Below, piece by piece: positions 41,739 to 50,440 of a stretch of 64,000 nt of DNA. The position numbers were made by a program, and so were the translations under genes. The stretch lies in contig JAQBYB010000005.1 of NCBI GenBank assembly GCA_027624235.1, forward strand, positions 1,794 through 65,793. Direction: 5' to 3'. This DNA comes from Pseudomonadota bacterium (GTDB lineage: Bacteria; Pseudomonadota; Alphaproteobacteria; Rhodospirillales; Casp-alpha2). The notes under the pieces were generated by a model. It saw only the letters and a list, made by a program, of their open reading frames with translations, made no database searches and was not told the origin of the DNA. Within the stretch, counting starts at the first letter, position 1. Every line of letters begins with the position of its first letter.

Positions 41739-41770
41739 TTGATTCAGTACTATGGTACGGGGTTTATGGT
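41739..41770 (+). promoter_or_regulatory. MerR-type promoter/operator upstream of the regulator gene
   Basis: TTGATT (41739-41744), an over-long 19-20-nt spacer carrying the dyad cAGTACtatgGTACgg, then TATGGT (41765-41770). Confidence 0.6.
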
Positions 41771-41785
41771 CTGACGAGGTGCTTC

Positions 41786-42208
41786 ATGGAAATACTGACG
41801 ATAAGCAAGGCAGCCATACAGGCAGGTGTGGGCGTGGAAACGATCCGTTTCTACGAACGCAAGGGATTGATCCGACAACCGCTTAAACCTCAAAATAGTG
41901 GATACCGGAATTATCCAAGCGACACCGTCAAAACAATTCGTTTCATTCGGCAGGCTCAGGAACTTGGTTTTTCTTTACGAGAAATCGAAGAGTTGCTGGC
42001 TCTCAAAGCCGATCCTGCAACCGATTGTGCCGATGTCCGCGAGCGTGCAATTGAGAAATTGGAAGAGGTCGAACGAAAGATTTCTCAATTATATAAAATG
42101 GGCTCAGCCCTCAAATCCGTTATCGCGTCATGTCCTTCTCGCGGGGGTTTAGATGGTTGTTCGATTATGGAGGCGCTGGAAAGCTCCTCTTCCGAGAGTG
42201 AGCGATAG
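41786..42208 (+). CDS. merR: MerR-family metal-responsive regulator, three-Cys MerR/PbrR type
   Basis: 140 aa. The HTH is ...AGVGVETIRFYERKGLI..., and Cys81, Cys116 and Cys125 have the same spacing as C82/C117/C126 of Tn21/Tn501 MerR. Confidence 0.8.
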   Translation: MEILTISKAAIQAGVGVETIRFYERKGLIRQPLKPQNSGYRNYPSDTVKTIRFIRQAQELGFSLREIEELLALKADPATDCADVRERAIEKLEEVERKISQLYKMGSALKSVIASCPSRGGLDGCSIMEALESSSSESER

Positions 42209-42231: not shown

Positions 42232-42276
42232 TAAGCTAAGCTAAGCTAAGCTAAGCTAAGCTAAGCTAAGCTAAGC
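42232..42276. repeat. Pentanucleotide microsatellite (TAAGC)x9
   Basis: Nine perfect tandem TAAGC units, 24 nt after the regulator stop and 72 nt before the next -35 box. Confidence 0.98.
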
Positions 42277-42348: not shown

Positions 42349-42380
42349 TTGACTCCGTACTATACTACGGCATTTAGCAT
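42349..42380 (+). promoter_or_regulatory. mer-operator-like promoter for the HMA-to-ATPase operon
   Basis: TTGACTCCGTACtataCTACGGcatTTAGCAT. The -35 box plus left half-site are identical to the Tn21 merT promoter start (TTGACTCCGTAC, from memory). Spacer is 19-20 nt and the -10 box is TTAGCA/TAGCAT. Confidence 0.65.
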
Positions 42381-42480: not shown

Positions 42481-42705
42481 ATGAACACTCTTGATCTAAC
42501 TATTGACGGTATGCACTGTGATGGTTGTGCAACGCGCATCCGCTCCCTGCTCGAAAAGGACAGCGGCATTCGCGAGGTTTCCGTTTCGTTCGAAACAGGA
42601 ATGGGCCGCATCATTTATAGCCCGCAATCAACCGACGAGGAACGGATCGTCGCGATCATCGAACGCGCCAGGTTCACCATTACCAATGGCATAAGCCATG
42701 GTTGA
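42481..42705 (+). CDS. Heavy-metal-associated (HMA) domain protein, cytoplasmic chaperone-like
   Basis: 74 aa, MNTLDLTIDGMHCDGCATRIRSLLEK... (GMxCxxC), with no signal peptide. GGAG RBS lies 7 nt upstream. Confidence 0.88.
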   Translation: MNTLDLTIDGMHCDGCATRIRSLLEKDSGIREVSVSFETGMGRIIYSPQSTDEERIVAIIERARFTITNGISHG

Positions 42706-43372
42706 CGATCAACTTATTAATTTGGTTCTACTCTCCATTGGCCTCGGGCTTTTCGGCTTTGTCGAGCCTTGTTCGGTCGGCTCCAGCCTTTTGTTTATTA
42801 AATTCATCGAAGGCCGCGACCGGGCAGCCAAAATTTCCCAGGTCGTCATTTTCATGATGACGCGAGCTCTGTTCATCGGTGTCATGGGGGCGGGCGCGGC
42901 TTTTATCGGCGCCTTGTTCATCAACCTTCAAAAAGGCGGATGGTTGGTACTAGGAGTGGCCTACATCCTGTTGGGCATATTGTATGTAATCGGCAAGGGC
43001 GGCGTTATTTCCCGGTCCATCGGTATCGGCATGTCACGGATTTCAGGGAAGCAGGGAAGCGCAGTATTGGGTGTCTTTTTCGGCCTCAACATACCGGCTT
43101 GCGCAGCACCTCTTATTTTTGCGCTTCTCGGAGTAACCGCCCTGGGAACCACCCCCAATGTGAGCAACGGGTTTATCTCTCTGTCCTTGTTCGGTTTGGC
43201 TTTGTCGATGCCCTTGTTGGCGGCTTTGCTGTTCGCACCGGTGCGCCGCGCCCTTGATCGCCTCACCGGTCTGTCCGTTCGAATGCCGTTTTGGACCGGC
43301 GTCCTGTTTGTCGCACTCGGCCTGTGGTCGGTGTATTTCGGGCTGTTTGTAAATTTGGAGGATTGGACTTGA
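42698..43372 (+). CDS. CcdA/DsbD_2-like six-TM membrane protein with two intramembrane Cys
   Basis: 224 aa and about 6 TM helices, with Cys in VEPCSVGS (TM1) and NIPACAAPL (TM4) as in cytochrome c biogenesis/UreH-like transmembrane families. Its start overlaps the HMA gene by 8 nt. Confidence 0.65.
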   Translation: MVDDQLINLVLLSIGLGLFGFVEPCSVGSSLLFIKFIEGRDRAAKISQVVIFMMTRALFIGVMGAGAAFIGALFINLQKGGWLVLGVAYILLGILYVIGKGGVISRSIGIGMSRISGKQGSAVLGVFFGLNIPACAAPLIFALLGVTALGTTPNVSNGFISLSLFGLALSMPLLAALLFAPVRRALDRLTGLSVRMPFWTGVLFVALGLWSVYFGLFVNLEDWT

Positions 43373-44811
43373 AAAGAGCGCTCTCTGTCACTGCGTTGGC
43401 GGTATCCCTGTGGACCTCGTCTGCCGTGGCCGACGACAAAGGGTTTCACTACGACGAAAATAGCGTCGGGCCCGCCACCTATTACGCTGCGATTTCCAAC
43501 CTCGCCAACGCCGTCATGTTCTCGGGGTTGGGTGAAGAGTTGATTGTGTCGCCCTATGAACGGGACGACTGGCTGCGCCGAGCGGGATACGTCACCCGCC
43601 CGCCGATGCCCGATATGGGGATTGTCGGCCCGGTTTACGCGTCGTCCGAACCGGCGTTTGAGAAGGCCCCTGATTTTTCCAAACCGGAGACCCTGCGTTG
43701 GAAGACTGACGGCGTCGATCGCACACTCGATCCCGGTGCTCAGGCATGGACGTTACTAAAAATCACCAGTCCTCAGTTCCATCTTCAATTTCACGACCTG
43801 CCGGAAAACAAGATTGCTGCGTTGATGATGGTTCCGCAGGCCCGTGTTCAGGCCAGCGTTCTTGTTGATCGCCTTCGTAATGATGATGGCGTATTCGCGC
43901 CCCGGTCGCCGGATGGAAAGTTTCTTAGCGCCACCCCTCGTGATCAGGCGGCGGTGCTGTGGGCGGCATCCAGTTTAATCCATGCCGGGAGCAGCTCACG
44001 AGATGACTACTGGCATAAGGCTTATGGTGATCTCACCAAGGCCGATAAATACCGCCCCCTTGCCGATCACGCTTTTGCCGCCCTCGACAAACTGCCGCCG
44101 CGCAGACCGGCTGAACGCGCCATCGCCATCGAAGCGCTTGGCCTCTACGCGTTGGCTTTGCGCGATGACGCCAAGCGCCGTCAAGCCATCGAGCGAGCGC
44201 GCACACACGCTAATGTATTGAAAAAGGAAACGCTGAGCGCGCTCGAAGATATCGCACTCGGTATCTATGGCCTTGTCGAAGCGGGCCGCTTGCTGGGCGA
44301 CAAAAGCTATGCCGACGCTGCCGCTGAACGGTTCCGGTCTACCTTGATGCCGCTATGGAATGACACCGCCGGTGTTTTCCTGTCGTCGAACGGCAAAGGC
44401 ATCTACACGCCGAACACGGTAGGCGCCGTCGTCGCCGCGCTGAACGCCCTCCGCTGGTACGGCCCGGACGATCTGGCCGGTGAGGCGGCCCGCCTCTACC
44501 CCAGGTTCTTCGAGAACGCGATCATCCGTTCCGGCCTGTTGCGTGCTAGTCCATTGGCCTTGGTTTCCAAGAATTACCGCGATGCTCAACCGGCCGCTTA
44601 TTTCGCCCATCCCCTACTGCCCGACTCGAAGGACACCGGCACCGCACCCGTGTTCGCCGCCATGGTCGTCTACGAAGGCGGAACGTGGTCGGTAGCTGAA
44701 ACCGCCTTCGAGACCAGCGCCGCCATGTTCCTGTCCAACATGTTGGCCTTGAAAAGCGATGGCCGAGCCGACCCCTTCCTGCCCGACGACTTGTTGTCGG
44801 CGATCCGTTAA
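43369..44811 (+). CDS. Secreted protein of unknown function (cysteine-free, helix-rich)
   Basis: TTG start at 43369 forms a TTGA overlap with the upstream stop, with GGAGG 7 nt upstream. The signal peptide is KRALSVTALAVSLWTSSAVA/DD. 480 aa with no recognisable catalytic or metal motif. Confidence 0.7.
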   Translation: MKRALSVTALAVSLWTSSAVADDKGFHYDENSVGPATYYAAISNLANAVMFSGLGEELIVSPYERDDWLRRAGYVTRPPMPDMGIVGPVYASSEPAFEKAPDFSKPETLRWKTDGVDRTLDPGAQAWTLLKITSPQFHLQFHDLPENKIAALMMVPQARVQASVLVDRLRNDDGVFAPRSPDGKFLSATPRDQAAVLWAASSLIHAGSSSRDDYWHKAYGDLTKADKYRPLADHAFAALDKLPPRRPAERAIAIEALGLYALALRDDAKRRQAIERARTHANVLKKETLSALEDIALGIYGLVEAGRLLGDKSYADAAAERFRSTLMPLWNDTAGVFLSSNGKGIYTPNTVGAVVAALNALRWYGPDDLAGEAARLYPRFFENAIIRSGLLRASPLALVSKNYRDAQPAAYFAHPLLPDSKDTGTAPVFAAMVVYEGGTWSVAETAFETSAAMFLSNMLALKSDGRADPFLPDDLLSAIR

Positions 44812-44820
44812 AGGAAAAAA

Positions 44821-47352
44821 ATGATGACTTCTACCTCCACTATGGCGGCTTCTGCGGATCGGGGTCTCGCGACCCTGCAACTGAAGATCGGCGGCATGAG
44901 CTGCTCATTCTGCGCCAACTCCATCGAGAAAGCCTTGTTCAAGGAAAAGGGTGTCGATGAGGTCCACGTCTCGCTCGCCCACGAGGAAACCCTGGTCCGC
45001 TATTACGCCGACAAGACGTCTCCCTCTGCGATCAAGGACACCATGCGGGCGTTGGGTTTCATCATTCGTGACCCCAACAAAGTAAAAGCTTTTGAGGAAC
45101 AGCAGAAGGCGGCACGGGAAGAACGCCACGACCTGATGACATCGGCGACTTGCGCCATAACATTGTTTGTCGCCATGTCGGCGATGTGGCTGGACCTGTG
45201 GCGGATGCAGAACTGGCACGTTTGGAGTGCGTGGGGGATATCGACGTTTGTTTTCCTGTGGAACGGTCGCCGTATTATCCGCATGGCCTGGGGTGCGGCA
45301 TGGCGCGGCATCACCAACCAGCATGTTCTGCTGAGCATCGGCGCTATCGGTGCCTATATCGGTGGTGTGTTAGGGAGTCCAATACCGTTTTTGGATTGGT
45401 ACGGTTTTGTCGGTTTCCCTGCTGTCGACTTCTTCGGCGTCGTGGTGTTCCTCACCACGTACCACCTGTTGTCGGGCTACATTTCGATGCTCGTTCGGAC
45501 CAAGGCATCCGAAAGCGTCCGTAAACTTCTCGACATGCAACCGGCAACGGCGCGCGTCGTTCGCGACGGCGTGGAAGAGGAAGTCGATATCGAAGTCGTT
45601 CTGGTCGGTGACCATGTCCGTATCCGCCCCGGCGAGAAGGTTCCTGTCGATGGCCGGGTGCTGGAAGGTCATAGCGCCATCGACGAATCTCTTGTCACAG
45701 GCGAACCCATTCCTTTAGATAAAAATGCTGGCACAGAAGTGATCGGCGGCAGCACCAACCAGACTGGCACTCTGCTGGTTGAGGTAACCCGGATTGGCGA
45801 GGACAGTTTCCTGCGCCAGGTCGCCCGCCATGTTGAGGAAGCCAAGGCGATGAAGCCCGGCATCATCGTTCTCGTTGACCGGGTGCTCAAACATTACGTT
45901 CCGGCGGTCCTCACCATCTCTCTGGCGGCCCTTCTCTTCTGGGGCTTCACCCCGGACGCCTGGACGGCGGAGCCCCACTGGGTGCGAGCCATCTACGCCG
46001 CCGTAACGGTCCTGGTGATGGGCTATCCGTGTGCACTCGGCATGGCGACACCGCTGGCGTTAATACGAGGCGGCGGTATGGCGGCCGAGCGTGGAATCCT
46101 GATCCGTTCGGGCGAGGCGTTCCAAACTCTCAAGGATGTCACCCACGTCGTCCTCGATAAAACCGGCACCATCACCGAAGGAAAACCGAGTGTCACCGAG
46201 ATTGATAGCCTGGGCGCACTCAGCCGAGACGAGGTTTTGCGTTTTGTCGCATCGGTGGAGGCGCCGTCCGAGCATCCCTTGGGCCGCGCCATCGTTGCCG
46301 CCGCAGAAGACGAAGGGCTGAGCCTGGCCTCGTGTGAAGGTTTTCAGGCCGTCACCGGCGCCGGGGTCGAGGCCACGGTGGACGGTAGAAAGGTTGTCGC
46401 CGGCACCCATCGTTTTTTGACCTCGCACGGCATCGACAGCCAAGCAGCGACGGCGTTGCTGACGCGCCATGAGAAAAACGCACACACCGCCATCCTTGTT
46501 GCCGTCAATGGTCAAGTAGCGGGTATCGTCGCCATCACCGATGCCATCAAGGCGGATGCGGCAGAAAGCATTGTTGAGATGAAGGCACGCGGGCTCGTTC
46601 CCTTGTTGGTTACCGGTGACAATCGCCACACGGCTGAAGCCGTAGCCCGGCAAGTGGGAATCGATGACGTTCGCGCGGAAGTATTGCCCCAGGAGAAGGC
46701 GGCGATTGTCCGTGACCTCCAGGCCGAAGGCGGTCGCGTCGCAATGGTAGGAGACGGCATCAACGACGCTCCGGCGCTGATGCAGGCCGACGTTGGCATA
46801 GCCATCGGTGCGGGAACCGACATCGCCATTGAAAGTTCGGACGTTATCATTGTCGGCAACCGGGTCGGCGCCATTCTGGACGCCCGCGACATCGGTGCCG
46901 CGAGTTACAGTAAGACGGTACAGAACCTCTGGCTGGCATTCTTCTTCAACGGTGTCGGTGTGCCGTTGGCGACGACGGGCCTGGTCCATCCTTCCTGGGC
47001 GATGATCGCCATGGCCGCCAGTGTGAGCGCCGTGCTCGCCAACTCCTTCGGTGGGCGGCTGCTTGTCTCCAAAGCGAACATTACCGATGGGATTGAAACA
47101 CCGAAGCTGATTGCTGACAAGAAACTGGTCTTTTCGGTGCCCGGCATTCACTGTGCCGGGTGCGTTAACACCATCAGCATGTACCTGAAGACCAATCCCG
47201 GGGTTGATTCGGTTGAGGGAGACGCGAAAGAAAAAACCGTAAAGGTCTCTTTTCAATCGGACACAGTAACCATTGAACGGCTACAAGAAATGTTCCAGGA
47301 AATCGGCTTTGATGCCAGCGATCCCACAACTCCGTCTTCTCCGCCGCACTAA
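44821..47352 (+). CDS. Heavy-metal translocating P1B-type ATPase with N- and C-terminal HMA domains
   Basis: 843 aa. It contains GMSCSFC (N-terminal HMA), TGEP, DKTGT, SEHPL, GDGINDAP and GIHCAGC (C-terminal HMA). The TM6 motif reads YPC instead of CPC. Confidence 0.93.
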   Translation: MMTSTSTMAASADRGLATLQLKIGGMSCSFCANSIEKALFKEKGVDEVHVSLAHEETLVRYYADKTSPSAIKDTMRALGFIIRDPNKVKAFEEQQKAAREERHDLMTSATCAITLFVAMSAMWLDLWRMQNWHVWSAWGISTFVFLWNGRRIIRMAWGAAWRGITNQHVLLSIGAIGAYIGGVLGSPIPFLDWYGFVGFPAVDFFGVVVFLTTYHLLSGYISMLVRTKASESVRKLLDMQPATARVVRDGVEEEVDIEVVLVGDHVRIRPGEKVPVDGRVLEGHSAIDESLVTGEPIPLDKNAGTEVIGGSTNQTGTLLVEVTRIGEDSFLRQVARHVEEAKAMKPGIIVLVDRVLKHYVPAVLTISLAALLFWGFTPDAWTAEPHWVRAIYAAVTVLVMGYPCALGMATPLALIRGGGMAAERGILIRSGEAFQTLKDVTHVVLDKTGTITEGKPSVTEIDSLGALSRDEVLRFVASVEAPSEHPLGRAIVAAAEDEGLSLASCEGFQAVTGAGVEATVDGRKVVAGTHRFLTSHGIDSQAATALLTRHEKNAHTAILVAVNGQVAGIVAITDAIKADAAESIVEMKARGLVPLLVTGDNRHTAEAVARQVGIDDVRAEVLPQEKAAIVRDLQAEGGRVAMVGDGINDAPALMQADVGIAIGAGTDIAIESSDVIIVGNRVGAILDARDIGAASYSKTVQNLWLAFFFNGVGVPLATTGLVHPSWAMIAMAASVSAVLANSFGGRLLVSKANITDGIETPKLIADKKLVFSVPGIHCAGCVNTISMYLKTNPGVDSVEGDAKEKTVKVSFQSDTVTIERLQEMFQEIGFDASDPTTPSSPPH

Positions 47353-47520: not shown

Positions 47521-48216
47521 TTATTTTAAGGGTTTCTGGAAGAGTGCGACGATATCCTTATACCCTCTTTGTTTTGCATGGGCCAACGGGGTAACTCCTT
47601 GGCGATCGGAAATGGTGACGTCGGCACCGGCTTTGATCAAGGCACGGGCTGTGTTGACGTGCCGCGGTCCGCCATCGCCCAAGACAACCGCTTCAATAAG
47701 GGCTGTCCAACCCAGATTATTGATGTGATTAAGAGGCGCCCCGGCTTTTATTAACGTTCTGACTATATCGAAATGGCCAAGATGCGCTGCTGCAATCAAA
47801 GCCGTTCCGTCATAAGGGCTGGTAATATTCCTGGGATTTCCTCCAAGAGAAATTGCCAATCGCATCATCTCCACATCATTGGCGACAGCGGCAATGGTGA
47901 TCACATCATAGGAGTCATTCTCAAAAGCATTCATATCTGCACCGGCCTTGGCCAATGCTTCGACGGCTTCCTCATGAGATTTGAAAGCGGCGACATGAAG
48001 CGGCGTTCGCCCGGCTCGGTCACGGGCTTCGACTTTGGCTCCTTGGACAATTAACCGGCGGATCTGGTCTGCATCTCCCTTGGATGCAGCCGCATGCAAG
48101 TCTGAATACGCTGATTCTTCAATTTGAGACGGAGCTGTTTGAGCCAAAATACTGCCAGGGATCATCAGCAAATAAGCCAAGAACAACCCAACCCTGCATA
48201 CTCGCCGTGCATTCAT
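47521..48216 (-). CDS. Ankyrin-repeat protein with signal peptide
   Basis: 231 aa. The N-terminus is MNARRVCRVGLFLAYLLMIPGSILAQ, followed by several ANK units (GRTPLHVAA..., DGTALIAAAHLGH..., GWTALIEAV..., GVTPLAHAKQRGY). Confidence 0.88.
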   Translation of the reverse strand: MNARRVCRVGLFLAYLLMIPGSILAQTAPSQIEESAYSDLHAAASKGDADQIRRLIVQGAKVEARDRAGRTPLHVAAFKSHEEAVEALAKAGADMNAFENDSYDVITIAAVANDVEMMRLAISLGGNPRNITSPYDGTALIAAAHLGHFDIVRTLIKAGAPLNHINNLGWTALIEAVVLGDGGPRHVNTARALIKAGADVTISDRQGVTPLAHAKQRGYKDIVALFQKPLK

Positions 48217-49054: not shown

Positions 49055-50440
49055 TCAAATCAAATGCCGGATGGCGATGATGATGCCGGCGATCACCGCG
49101 CCATTGAGAAAGGCCGTCGGCGCCATCCAGCGCCAGCCGATGATATGGGCGGGGACGCCGGTGACGCGCGACATGTACAGGGTCGTCCCGGAAAACGGCG
49201 AGACCATCGTGCTCAAGCCCCACACCCCGACATAGGTCAGGCCCATCACCCAGTCCCTCATGCCGATGGCTTCGGGCGGAAGAATGGAGCTCAACGCAAT
49301 CACGACGATGACCGCGTGCAGACCGATCATGCTGGTGATCAGGAAAAACAGGATAATGGCGATGACCTTAGCATCGGTCCACGGCAACACCGCGTTGACC
49401 AGGGCGGCCACATCCTGAGACGGGATGGCGCTGGAAAGGCCGACGCCGAGGATGTTGGCGGCGACAAAAACCAGCACCTCGTTGCGAAGGGTCGGCAGCC
49501 CCTTCATGACCTCATAAGTCAAGCTTTTGGCGCGATGCGGAAATCTGGTGCCTTTGGCCCCGAAGGACATATACCAAAATATCGCAAACGGCGGCCCCAT
49601 CAGACCAAGGGTTACGGGAATGGAGGTTCCGGTGATGTCAACAACCGCAATGGTCAGACCGACAAGCGATCCCAACAGGGCCGCTGTTCGCCAAAAATGC
49701 TGTCTTGAAATGGCGACCGGGCTGGAAGCCGCCTCGGACGGCATCGCCGCGCGCAGAACCAATCGGTCATAGAGCCAGCCTATGGTTATGATGGTGAGCG
49801 CGAGAATTATCCCCAACGGCCCGATATCGCGCCATGACAGGGTCGGGATGGCGACCAGAACAACGATCATGCCGATAAAAAACGGCGACCAGCATGACGC
49901 ACTGCCGAACCCGTTGATGAGGGCCATGGTCATCCGCCGGCGCAGGTGAGGGTCCTTTTGGCCCTCGACCATGGTCGATAGCAAACCAAGTCCGGCCAGA
50001 TTCAGCACCGAGCCTAAAACATGAACCCCGAAGGACATATACATAAAACGCCGTCCGGGTGGCTGACTAACGATGGTTTCTCGCGCCGCCTGCATGGAAG
50101 GGCTTTGCTTGACCGGTAATTGCAGCCAGGAAACCGCGAAGAACAACAGCAGGAAAATCCTGGACCGCGCAATGCCATCGATGACCACACCGGCCCAATG
50201 ATCGGATGCCGCCGCCCCGATCAGGCCGATGAGGGTTAAGACGAGGCCGGCTATTTTTTGCGGAAACGGGATTTGCCTAAATTGAAGAACGATGAAAAGA
50301 ACAATCAATCCGGCCGTGACCGGCACCAATTGGGGCAGGTGAACAAAGGCGTCGATCAGGGCGAGTACGGCGACCGCAAGGTACACCCAAGCTGAAATCC
50401 CGATGCGGTGTTGAGGCAAATCGTTGTCCAGTTGGTACAA
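49055..50440 (-). CDS. Polytopic membrane protein, unassigned family (permease-like)
   Basis: 461 aa with a TTG start and at least 11 hydrophobic segments. It is a long uninterrupted ORF with membrane-protein composition, and I recognise no diagnostic motif. Confidence 0.6.
   Translation of the reverse strand: MYQLDNDLPQHRIGISAWVYLAVAVLALIDAFVHLPQLVPVTAGLIVLFIVLQFRQIPFPQKIAGLVLTLIGLIGAAASDHWAGVVIDGIARSRIFLLLFFAVSWLQLPVKQSPSMQAARETIVSQPPGRRFMYMSFGVHVLGSVLNLAGLGLLSTMVEGQKDPHLRRRMTMALINGFGSASCWSPFFIGMIVVLVAIPTLSWRDIGPLGIILALTIITIGWLYDRLVLRAAMPSEAASSPVAISRQHFWRTAALLGSLVGLTIAVVDITGTSIPVTLGLMGPPFAIFWYMSFGAKGTRFPHRAKSLTYEVMKGLPTLRNEVLVFVAANILGVGLSSAIPSQDVAALVNAVLPWTDAKVIAIILFFLITSMIGLHAVIVVIALSSILPPEAIGMRDWVMGLTYVGVWGLSTMVSPFSGTTLYMSRVTGVPAHIIGWRWMAPTAFLNGAVIAGIIIAIRHLI

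Follow-up and report, generated by a model that had tools for sequence, protein, structure and literature searches.

A 480-residue exported protein without a single cysteine, predicted to fold as a six-hairpin (α/α)6 toroid and belonging to an unnamed family, is encoded in an apparent metal-responsive operon of an alphaproteobacterium (Pseudomonadota bacterium, GenBank assembly GCA_027624235.1). The operon lies in the 64,000-nucleotide stretch analyzed here, hereafter the window (contig JAQBYB010000005.1, positions 1,794 to 65,793). As judged from gene order and correlated divergence across genomes, this protein (the toroid protein) was established as a fixed, co-evolving member of a module that is controlled by a MerR regulator and a merO-like operator and is built around a P1B ATPase of YPC type. 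From the domain fusions and neighboring genes of its relatives, the wider toroid superfamily was likewise established to keep company with copper, mercury and redox genes. The function is proposed more tentatively. We give a little less than an even chance to the reading that the toroid protein is a dedicated periplasmic partner of the pump, an acceptor or holder of a soft metal by means of conserved Met and His residues. The features on which these statements depend are as follows.

43369..44811, + strand: toroid gene, encoding the 480-aa exported, Cys-free (α/α)6-toroid protein of an unnamed family.
43369..43434, + strand: signal peptide of the toroid protein, residues 1–22, predicted to be cut after AVA; AlphaFold2 (AF2) predicted local distance difference test (pLDDT) values are below 50 at residues 1–23.
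44821..47352, + strand: P1B ATPase of 843 aa with an N-terminal HMA domain (GMSCSFC) and a C-terminal HMA domain (GIHCAGC), by Pfam and NCBIfam.

The gene order in the window is MerR, a 74-aa HMA protein, a 224-aa membrane protein, the toroid protein and the 843-aa P1B ATPase. The TTG start codon of the toroid gene (43369–43371) overlaps the TGA stop codon (43370–43372) of the reading frame 42698–43372 within a 4-nt TTGA, the genes of the HMA protein and the membrane protein overlap by 8 nt, and the ATPase gene begins 10 nt past the toroid stop codon. The toroid family was found to be rare, with 28 loci in 185,579 species genomes (one genome per species; 33 loci were fetched, these 28 and 5 others), and the toroid gene was present in 3 of 401 genomes sampled from the same class. 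The hosts include marine Alphaproteobacteria (Hoeflea, Nitratireductor, Leisingera, Stappia, Thalassospira, Tepidicaulis, Hwanghaeella and several metagenome-assembled genomes) and some Gammaproteobacteria (Litchfieldella, Arhodomonas, Sedimenticola and Competibacteraceae), and one further copy of the module was found on a mobilizable Leisingera plasmid. Carriers that can be cultured are Leisingera aquaemixtae S166 (on its plasmid), Thalassospira profundimaris WP0211 and Litchfieldella qijiaojingensis KCTC 22228. A preliminary description of the gene, made from the window's letters alone, had raised a conserved linkage to HMA or P1B-ATPase genes as a point to be looked into, and the linkage was borne out: at every locus with DNA downstream of the toroid gene, the next gene on the 3' side was an orthologue of the window's P1B ATPase (57–87% identity; tblastn with the window proteins). 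The 224-aa membrane protein is encoded upstream of the toroid gene in all loci but L012 and L027, being degraded in L025 and split in L019. A MerR orthologue lies upstream in most loci, with C-terminal MerR–HMA fusions in L005, L014, L015 and L016, and a merO-like element heads the module in at least 12 loci, where it takes the form TTGACTCCGTAC-N4-GTACGG (L001, L006, L007, L008, L014, L015, L018, L027, L032, L053, L054 and L063). Over 19 loci, the pairwise identities of the toroid protein were correlated with those of the ATPase (Mantel r of 0.92, a value reached by 0 of 2000 permutations), the mean identities being 56% and 69%, respectively, with the toroid protein evolving faster. To judge from this paired divergence, the two genes are inherited as a unit, and an unrelated passenger gene was ruled out by the 100% linkage, the coupled starts and the correlated divergence.

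The surroundings of the module are, by their gene content, those of mobile metal islands. In L005, the module follows merR-merT-merP-merF-merA and precedes type IV secretion genes, and in L002 its neighbors include merT/merR and IS66 elements; canonical mer genes adjoin it in L002/L017, and a second merR-like match in L014, L015, L018 and L032/33 suggests that mer genes are adjacent there as well. A canonical CcdA/DsbD_TM gene is often found beside the module. In Sedimenticola (L003/L004, 6311–6971), the regulatory layout is different: the MerR gene is divergent from the module and is accompanied by a small Thioredoxin_3 gene and one of the HlyIII family, the core of membrane protein, toroid and ATPase being kept. 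Searches with Pfam and NCBIfam found no MerT, MerP or MerA in the window module. Moreover, no MerA above the 454-bit cut-off was found in the window's genome (best match of 364), so the module must work there without mercury reduction.

The reading frame itself was re-read in the sequence, and the TTG/TGA overlap, the GGAGG 7 nt upstream of the start (43357–43361), the AVA/DD signal peptide and the absence of Cys were all as previously described. The N-terminus, MKRALSVTALAVSLWTSSAVA/DD (...SSAVA/DD), has the features of a typical Sec signal, including an AxA cleavage site. At least 143 homologous clusters of the toroid protein were returned by a word-indexed search that covered 5.8 billion proteins, and the 120 that were listed have lengths of 433–593 aa (nearly all 471–511 aa) and cover 90–100% of the query. 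The closest homologue among the matches listed, with 79% identity, is likewise 480 aa long, and the TTG at 43369 was for this reason favored over an in-frame TTG upstream at 43291. The gene is real and its product is exported. Split copies were observed in L032/L033 (6001–7460; Hwanghaeella/SP123, by a frame change) and in G127:C7 (47539–48989, by a TAA), each a possible pseudogene or assembly error. An apparent 1063-aa fusion in G188 was rejected, as it reflects a stop-free upstream frame in GC-rich DNA, and the gene begins at its own signal peptide.

The 480 residues of the toroid protein include 0 Cys, 8 His and 9 Met. Cysteine is rare throughout the family, with none in 24 of 38 aligned homologues, one in 12 and two in the remaining 2. 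The preliminary description had spoken of only scattered His and Met; few they are, but merely scattered they are not, since M50, M154, M458 and H216 are invariant in the 38 homologues and M80, M153, H138 and H142 are kept in 95% or more of them. Five Met and three His are thus conserved at this level, with hardly any other Met or His conservation in the protein. The accompanying statement that excluded the protein as a thiolate ligand holds, there being no Cys, but it overlooked that the near-invariant Met and His residues constitute a candidate thioether/imidazole site. Met/His ligand chemistry is used in the oxidizing periplasm by CusF, CopC and CopM, and a protein that has to escape poisoning by Hg or Cu would be expected to lack Cys, as this one does. 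The family also has seven invariant Trp residues, together with invariant Asp, Glu, Arg, Lys, His and Tyr.

The suggestion of an α/α-toroid fold, made at first from repeated amphipathic segments, was supported by structure prediction. The AF2 model, built on the alignment of 38 homologues, has a pLDDT of 91.7 and a predicted template modeling (pTM) score of 0.92, only the signal peptide being disordered. When the model was compared with the PDB by Foldseek, six-hairpin (α/α)6 proteins stood at the top of the list and made up almost all of the top 40 (probability 1.0, E values from 9e-5 to 1e-2, TM-scores of 0.41–0.59 and identities of 8–14%). The neighbors were AGE-family epimerases (3gt5 and 6f04), glycoside hydrolase family 9 (GH9) proteins (6gdt, 5dgr and 1ia6), cellobiose 2-epimerases, GH76 and GH88/105 proteins. 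A comparison with viral structures gave the six-hairpin signal again and nothing beyond it. The model and the Foldseek matches together place the toroid protein in the six-hairpin fold class. The sequence-profile searches that had also been proposed gave no family: neither the toroid protein nor the 38-homologue profile nor the 38 members searched singly had a Pfam, NCBIfam or PDB sequence match, apart from a single PDB profile match to leghemoglobin (E of 0.1) that was discarded as noise. For the AGE family (PF07221), there was no Pfam match for the toroid protein (E ≤ 0.01) or for its 37 closest homologues (E ≤ 1), and for GH9 there was no Pfam match for the toroid protein, the likeness being in fold alone with 9–12% identity. 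A confident match to a non-metal enzyme family without metal linkage, which the preliminary description had named as a result that would tell against its view, did not appear in the Pfam, NCBIfam and PDB searches. The HMA/MerP/CopZ class was excluded by the absence of Cys and of an HMA match and by the toroid fold, and a MerP/CopZ-type role was ruled out by the zero Cys content and the different fold. On the model, the toroid protein is an outlier of the six-hairpin fold class and a member of no solved family.

The superfamily extends well beyond the ATPase-linked family. With a HMMER profile run against 1.84 billion representatives, 228 sequences of about 450 to 5473 aa were matched at E ≤ 1e-3, and domain fusions were read in 63 distant full-length relatives. 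These comprised fusions to cupredoxin (four), cytochrome c (one), a GSDH propeller (one) and a DUF7482 segment (one, P0140), and several of the 63 carry cell-surface Ig-like repeats. Genomic contexts were readable for seven relatives, that of P0140 being uninformative and P0143 and P0145 lying on short contigs. The neighbors of five of them were as follows.

P0134: a small HMA gene.
P0138: cupredoxin, CsoR-like and Pyr_redox_dim genes.
P0160: a CsoR-like gene on one side, multicopper oxidase and cytochrome c genes on the other.
P0167: an ECF sigma factor gene and a TPR/NHL protein gene.
P0135: a glycosyltransferase gene.

These fusions and neighboring genes carry the metal/redox association beyond the ATPase-linked family. 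DUF7482 had no match in the window's genome, a result of little weight because the control genomes were equally silent. Conservation across the superfamily mostly concerns structural residues, with the addition of a polar core (K131, H138, H142, Q193, W198, E304, R307, R362 and W440), to which the ATPase-linked family adds the near-invariant M50, M80, M153, M154, M458 and H216.

The same observations bear on an alternative to metal binding, namely that the toroid protein is a six-hairpin enzyme of epimerase, isomerase, hydrolase or lyase type, acting on a periplasmic sugar, glycan or small molecule whose product helps under metal stress. The exported metal might, for example, be sequestered or the envelope repaired, with PbrB of the pbr operon as a parallel. 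All of the top fold matches are enzymes, and the GlcNAc 2-epimerase domain (PF07221) was weakly matched by 2 of the 63 distant relatives (best E of 3.9e-5) and C5-epim_C by one. The invariant Trp and polar residues listed above resemble a carbohydrate-type pocket, and the core of Lys, two His, Gln, Trp, Glu and two Arg is common across the superfamily. Among its invariant residues the toroid family has H216, E304, R307 and R362, at most putative counterparts of the catalytic His pair, Arg and Glu in the central pocket of AGE enzymes. However, the likeness to the AGE superfamily and other six-hairpin enzymes consists of the (α/α)6 toroid and the weak matches of distant relatives, while the toroid protein and its 37 closest homologues match no glycosidase or epimerase model. 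The structural neighbors have only about 10% identity and TM-scores of no more than 0.41–0.57, and the toroid protein differs from these enzymes further in being exported, Cys-free and encoded in a metal operon. None of the loci inspected has a sugar-metabolism gene with the module, and the cupredoxin and cytochrome c fusions of the relatives are more in keeping with redox or metal chemistry than with glycan chemistry. An enzymatic function is regarded as unlikely, though it is the most probable of the alternatives.

The partner ATPase is itself unusual. In the window, it has GYPCALGMATP in the fourth transmembrane segment (TM4), FFN in TM5, MAASVS in TM6 and, before TM6, a conserved periplasmic VHPSW loop. 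All of the ATPases beside the toroid gene carry GYPC[AS]LGMATP in TM4, FFN in TM5, MA(A/L)SVS in TM6 and an N-terminal HMA motif G(M/I)SCSFC, and YPC was found in TM4 of every one whose TM4 region lies on the contig. The window ATPase scores 465 bits with TIGR01511, above the cut-off of 397, the Cu type being its best score, and it has in common with the P1B-1 ATPase CopA the HMA domains, the TM6 pattern M-x2-S-x-S and this TIGR01511 pass. It differs in the metal-site motifs: Cu and Zn pumps have CPC in TM4 and CopA has YN in TM5, whereas the combination of CPC, YN and MxxSS (TM6) that characterizes P1B-1 CopA is replaced in the toroid-adjacent ATPases by YPC and FN. A published list of P1B subtype motifs comprises CPC, SPC, PCP, SCA and CSC, and YPC is absent from it (PMC13460109).

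A DNA pattern for YPC was found in 5 of the 401 genomes of the class, namely the three toroid carriers and two genomes of one family, G176 and G314. In G176 (L053, G176:C60, 3988–6390), the membrane-protein and toroid genes are replaced by genes for a Phenol_MetA_deg outer-membrane barrel and an NHL beta-propeller, and 27 residues of the toroid C-terminus survive as a relic before the ATPase, which suggests that the pump can exchange its periplasmic companion. G314 (L054, G314:C96) has the YPC ATPase without a toroid gene, its contig stopping just upstream of the ATPase. A cassette of similar content was observed in Litchfieldella (L001, 14893–17211), downstream of the toroid module; it consists of a second merO-like promoter and genes for a 107-aa HMA protein, a barrel of the Phenol_MetA_deg kind and a 315-aa protein of no assigned identity, and it looks like a separate mobile MerR-controlled module.

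The remaining features of the window operon are the regulatory elements and the three genes upstream of the toroid gene.

41739..41770, + strand: merO-like promoter/operator before merR, TTGATT-CAGTACTATGGTACGG-...TATGGT (TTGATT, then CAGTAC, TATG and GTACGG, then TATGGT).
41786..42208, + strand: MerR-family metal sensor of 140 aa, with Pfam MerR, MerR_1 and MerR-DNA-bind matches and Cys81, Cys116 and Cys125.
42349..42380, + strand: merO-like promoter/operator of the cargo genes, TTGACT-CCGTACTATACTACGG-...TAGCAT (TTGACT, the dyad CCGTAC-TATA-CTACGG, then TAGCAT).
42481..42705, + strand: HMA protein of 74 aa (Pfam HMA, 1.1e-13) with the motif GMHCDGC and no signal peptide.
42698..43372, + strand: polytopic membrane protein of 224 aa with the invariant Cys motifs EPCS[IV]GS and NIPACAAP, distantly CcdA/DsbD_TM-like.

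Both merO-like promoters have the long spacer of 19–20 nt that is typical of MerR-activated promoters, and we take the two elements to be close in sequence to Tn501 merO. The best NCBIfam match of the window MerR is TIGR02051 MerR, with 130.5 bits below a cut-off of 150.85, and its C-x34-C-x8-C spacing marks it, by sequence, as being of the Hg-MerR/PbrR kind rather than of the CueR kind. The 74-aa HMA protein, lacking a signal peptide, is probably a cytoplasmic CopZ-like chaperone. The 224-aa membrane protein was compared with a DsbD_TM protein by hhalign (E of 6.5e-4, with a probability of only 27%), PF02683 was matched by 1 of 14 members of its family (E of 0.02), and the orthologue on the Leisingera plasmid bears the RefSeq name 'cytochrome c biogenesis protein CcdA'. 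The AF2 model of this protein was poor (pLDDT of 66) and the fold search gave no match below an E of 0.1, so the CcdA assignment is weak.

Other elements were observed around the operon. A pentanucleotide tandem repeat (AAGCT/GCTAA, about 8.8 copies), possibly slippage-prone, occupies 42233–42276, in the interval from the merR stop codon to the cargo promoter. Convergent with the ATPase gene and immediately downstream of it, a 231-aa ankyrin-repeat protein with a signal-like N-terminal segment is encoded at 47521–48216 on the minus strand; free-living bacteria seldom export ankyrin proteins. No Pfam or NCBIfam match was obtained for a 461-aa polytopic membrane protein encoded at 49055–50440, also on the minus strand.

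In the metal-acceptor reading, these components would act in sequence. The three-Cys MerR would bind a thiophilic metal (Hg(II)-like, with Cu(I) or Ag(I) also possible) and activate the merO-like promoter across its 19–20 nt spacer, and the operon would then yield the cytoplasmic HMA chaperone, the 2-Cys CcdA-like membrane protein, the toroid protein and the YPC-type ATPase. The ATPase would carry the metal across the inner membrane, and the toroid protein, at the periplasmic face of the pump, would take or hold it on M50, M80, M153, M154, M458, H138, H142 and H216, by which the metal would be kept off periplasmic thiols and its re-entry into the cell blocked. In this scheme, we infer the contact of the toroid protein with the pump, the binding of metal by Met and His, which metal is concerned and which way it is moved.

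Several observations weigh against this proposal. The toroid protein has no metal-binding motif of a known family, and an enzyme-like toroid of 480 aa is large for a metallochaperone. The polar core of the superfamily looks, from its residues, as much like a pocket for a sugar or another small molecule as like a metal site, and several of the family-specific Met residues are not kept in distant relatives. The support for the candidate Met/His site comes from sequence conservation. The same ATPase subtype exists without the toroid in G176 and G314, and the toroid protein is therefore not indispensable to the pump. In addition, the metal signals disagree, the sensor and operator being Hg-like, the ATPase of Cu type (TIGR01511) and the distant relatives in Cu contexts.

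The direction of transport is the point on which another interpretation departs. By the logic of the mer operon, the toroid protein would capture the metal and feed it to the YPC ATPase, the 2-Cys membrane protein or both, and the imported cytoplasmic metal would be held by HMA domains or, where present, reduced by MerA. The regulatory elements resemble those of mer operons, which turn on uptake; the module also directly adjoins merT/merP/merF/merA in L005 and merT/merR in L002. A further argument comes from CopAL6, a synthetic metagenomic gene product of the same architecture (a YPC trimer, with HMA domains at each end), which lowered copper resistance and gave the highest copper accumulation in E. 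coli lacking copA (PMC11082258). However, the orthology of CopAL6 with the window ATPase can be proposed from two common features only, the YPC and the two-ended HMA arrangement, and an overexpressed membrane protein rich in HMA domains could raise cell-bound copper without any import. Established P1B ATPases work in the export direction, out of the cytoplasm, and in the window's genome, which has no MerA above the cut-off, the import of a toxic metal would be purposeless. Uptake is held to be quite improbable. A structural or regulatory subunit that stabilizes, gates or localizes the ATPase or the CcdA-like protein, with neither metal binding nor catalysis, is the least credible alternative: obligate adjacency and co-evolution would be expected of a subunit, and the pump can persist where the toroid has been lost or an unrelated propeller cassette has taken its place, but no P1B ATPase is known to need a subunit of this sort, the near-invariant polar, Met and His residues exceed the usual need of a docking surface, and relatives are found without any ATPase nearby.

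The metal-acceptor proposal can be compared with several known systems. The CusF, CopC/PcoC and CopM proteins are periplasmic, Cys-poor and exporter-linked, with Met and His as ligands, and the toroid protein resembles them in these respects, its conserved Met and His being candidates; they are small beta-barrel or helical-bundle proteins, whereas the mature toroid protein has 458 aa and its metal binding is only predicted. The mer operon of Tn21/Tn501 has in common with the window module a three-Cys MerR and the TTGACTCCGTAC-N4-GTACGG operator with a long spacer, but it encodes MerT, MerP and MerA, in place of which the window module has the HMA protein, the CcdA-like protein, the toroid protein and the P1B ATPase. 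The pbr lead-resistance operon (PbrR, PbrA and PbrB) is a MerR-family/P1B-ATPase operon with a periplasm-facing accessory protein for the exported metal, which makes it the likeness to the window operon in general plan; PbrB is a membrane phosphatase of unrelated fold, and the toroid protein has no phosphatase signature. The preliminary description had seen no obvious precedent for a periplasmic protein of this kind in such an operon. This is upheld for the fold, as no description of the toroid protein was found in the literature on P1B ATPases with MerR or periplasmic proteins and on toroids with copper resistance, but the general idea has a precedent in PbrB. The toroid protein represents an undescribed family of a known fold and a new accessory component in a known kind of MerR-controlled P1B-ATPase operon.

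Cells remove Cu, Ag, Zn, Cd, Pb and Hg mainly through P1B ATPases, and the fate of the metal on the periplasmic side is, to our knowledge, known only for CopA-CusF. Against this background, the module brings together a toroid fold not known to have been linked to metals before, a pump whose YPC/FN site lies outside the described subtypes and a mercury-type switch without a reductase. A wider generalization, which we consider rather doubtful at present, would make the YPC-type P1B ATPases an undescribed pump subclass with interchangeable dedicated periplasmic partners, the toroid protein the first six-hairpin periplasmic metal acceptor or metallo-redox partner, and its superfamily a widespread and unrecognized group of extracytoplasmic handlers of soft metals (Cu/Hg). 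If the partner does bind or transform the metal, a new mechanism of resistance or trafficking would be at work on the plasmids and conjugative elements of marine bacteria, and an unannotated superfamily of more than 200 sequence clusters would gain a function.

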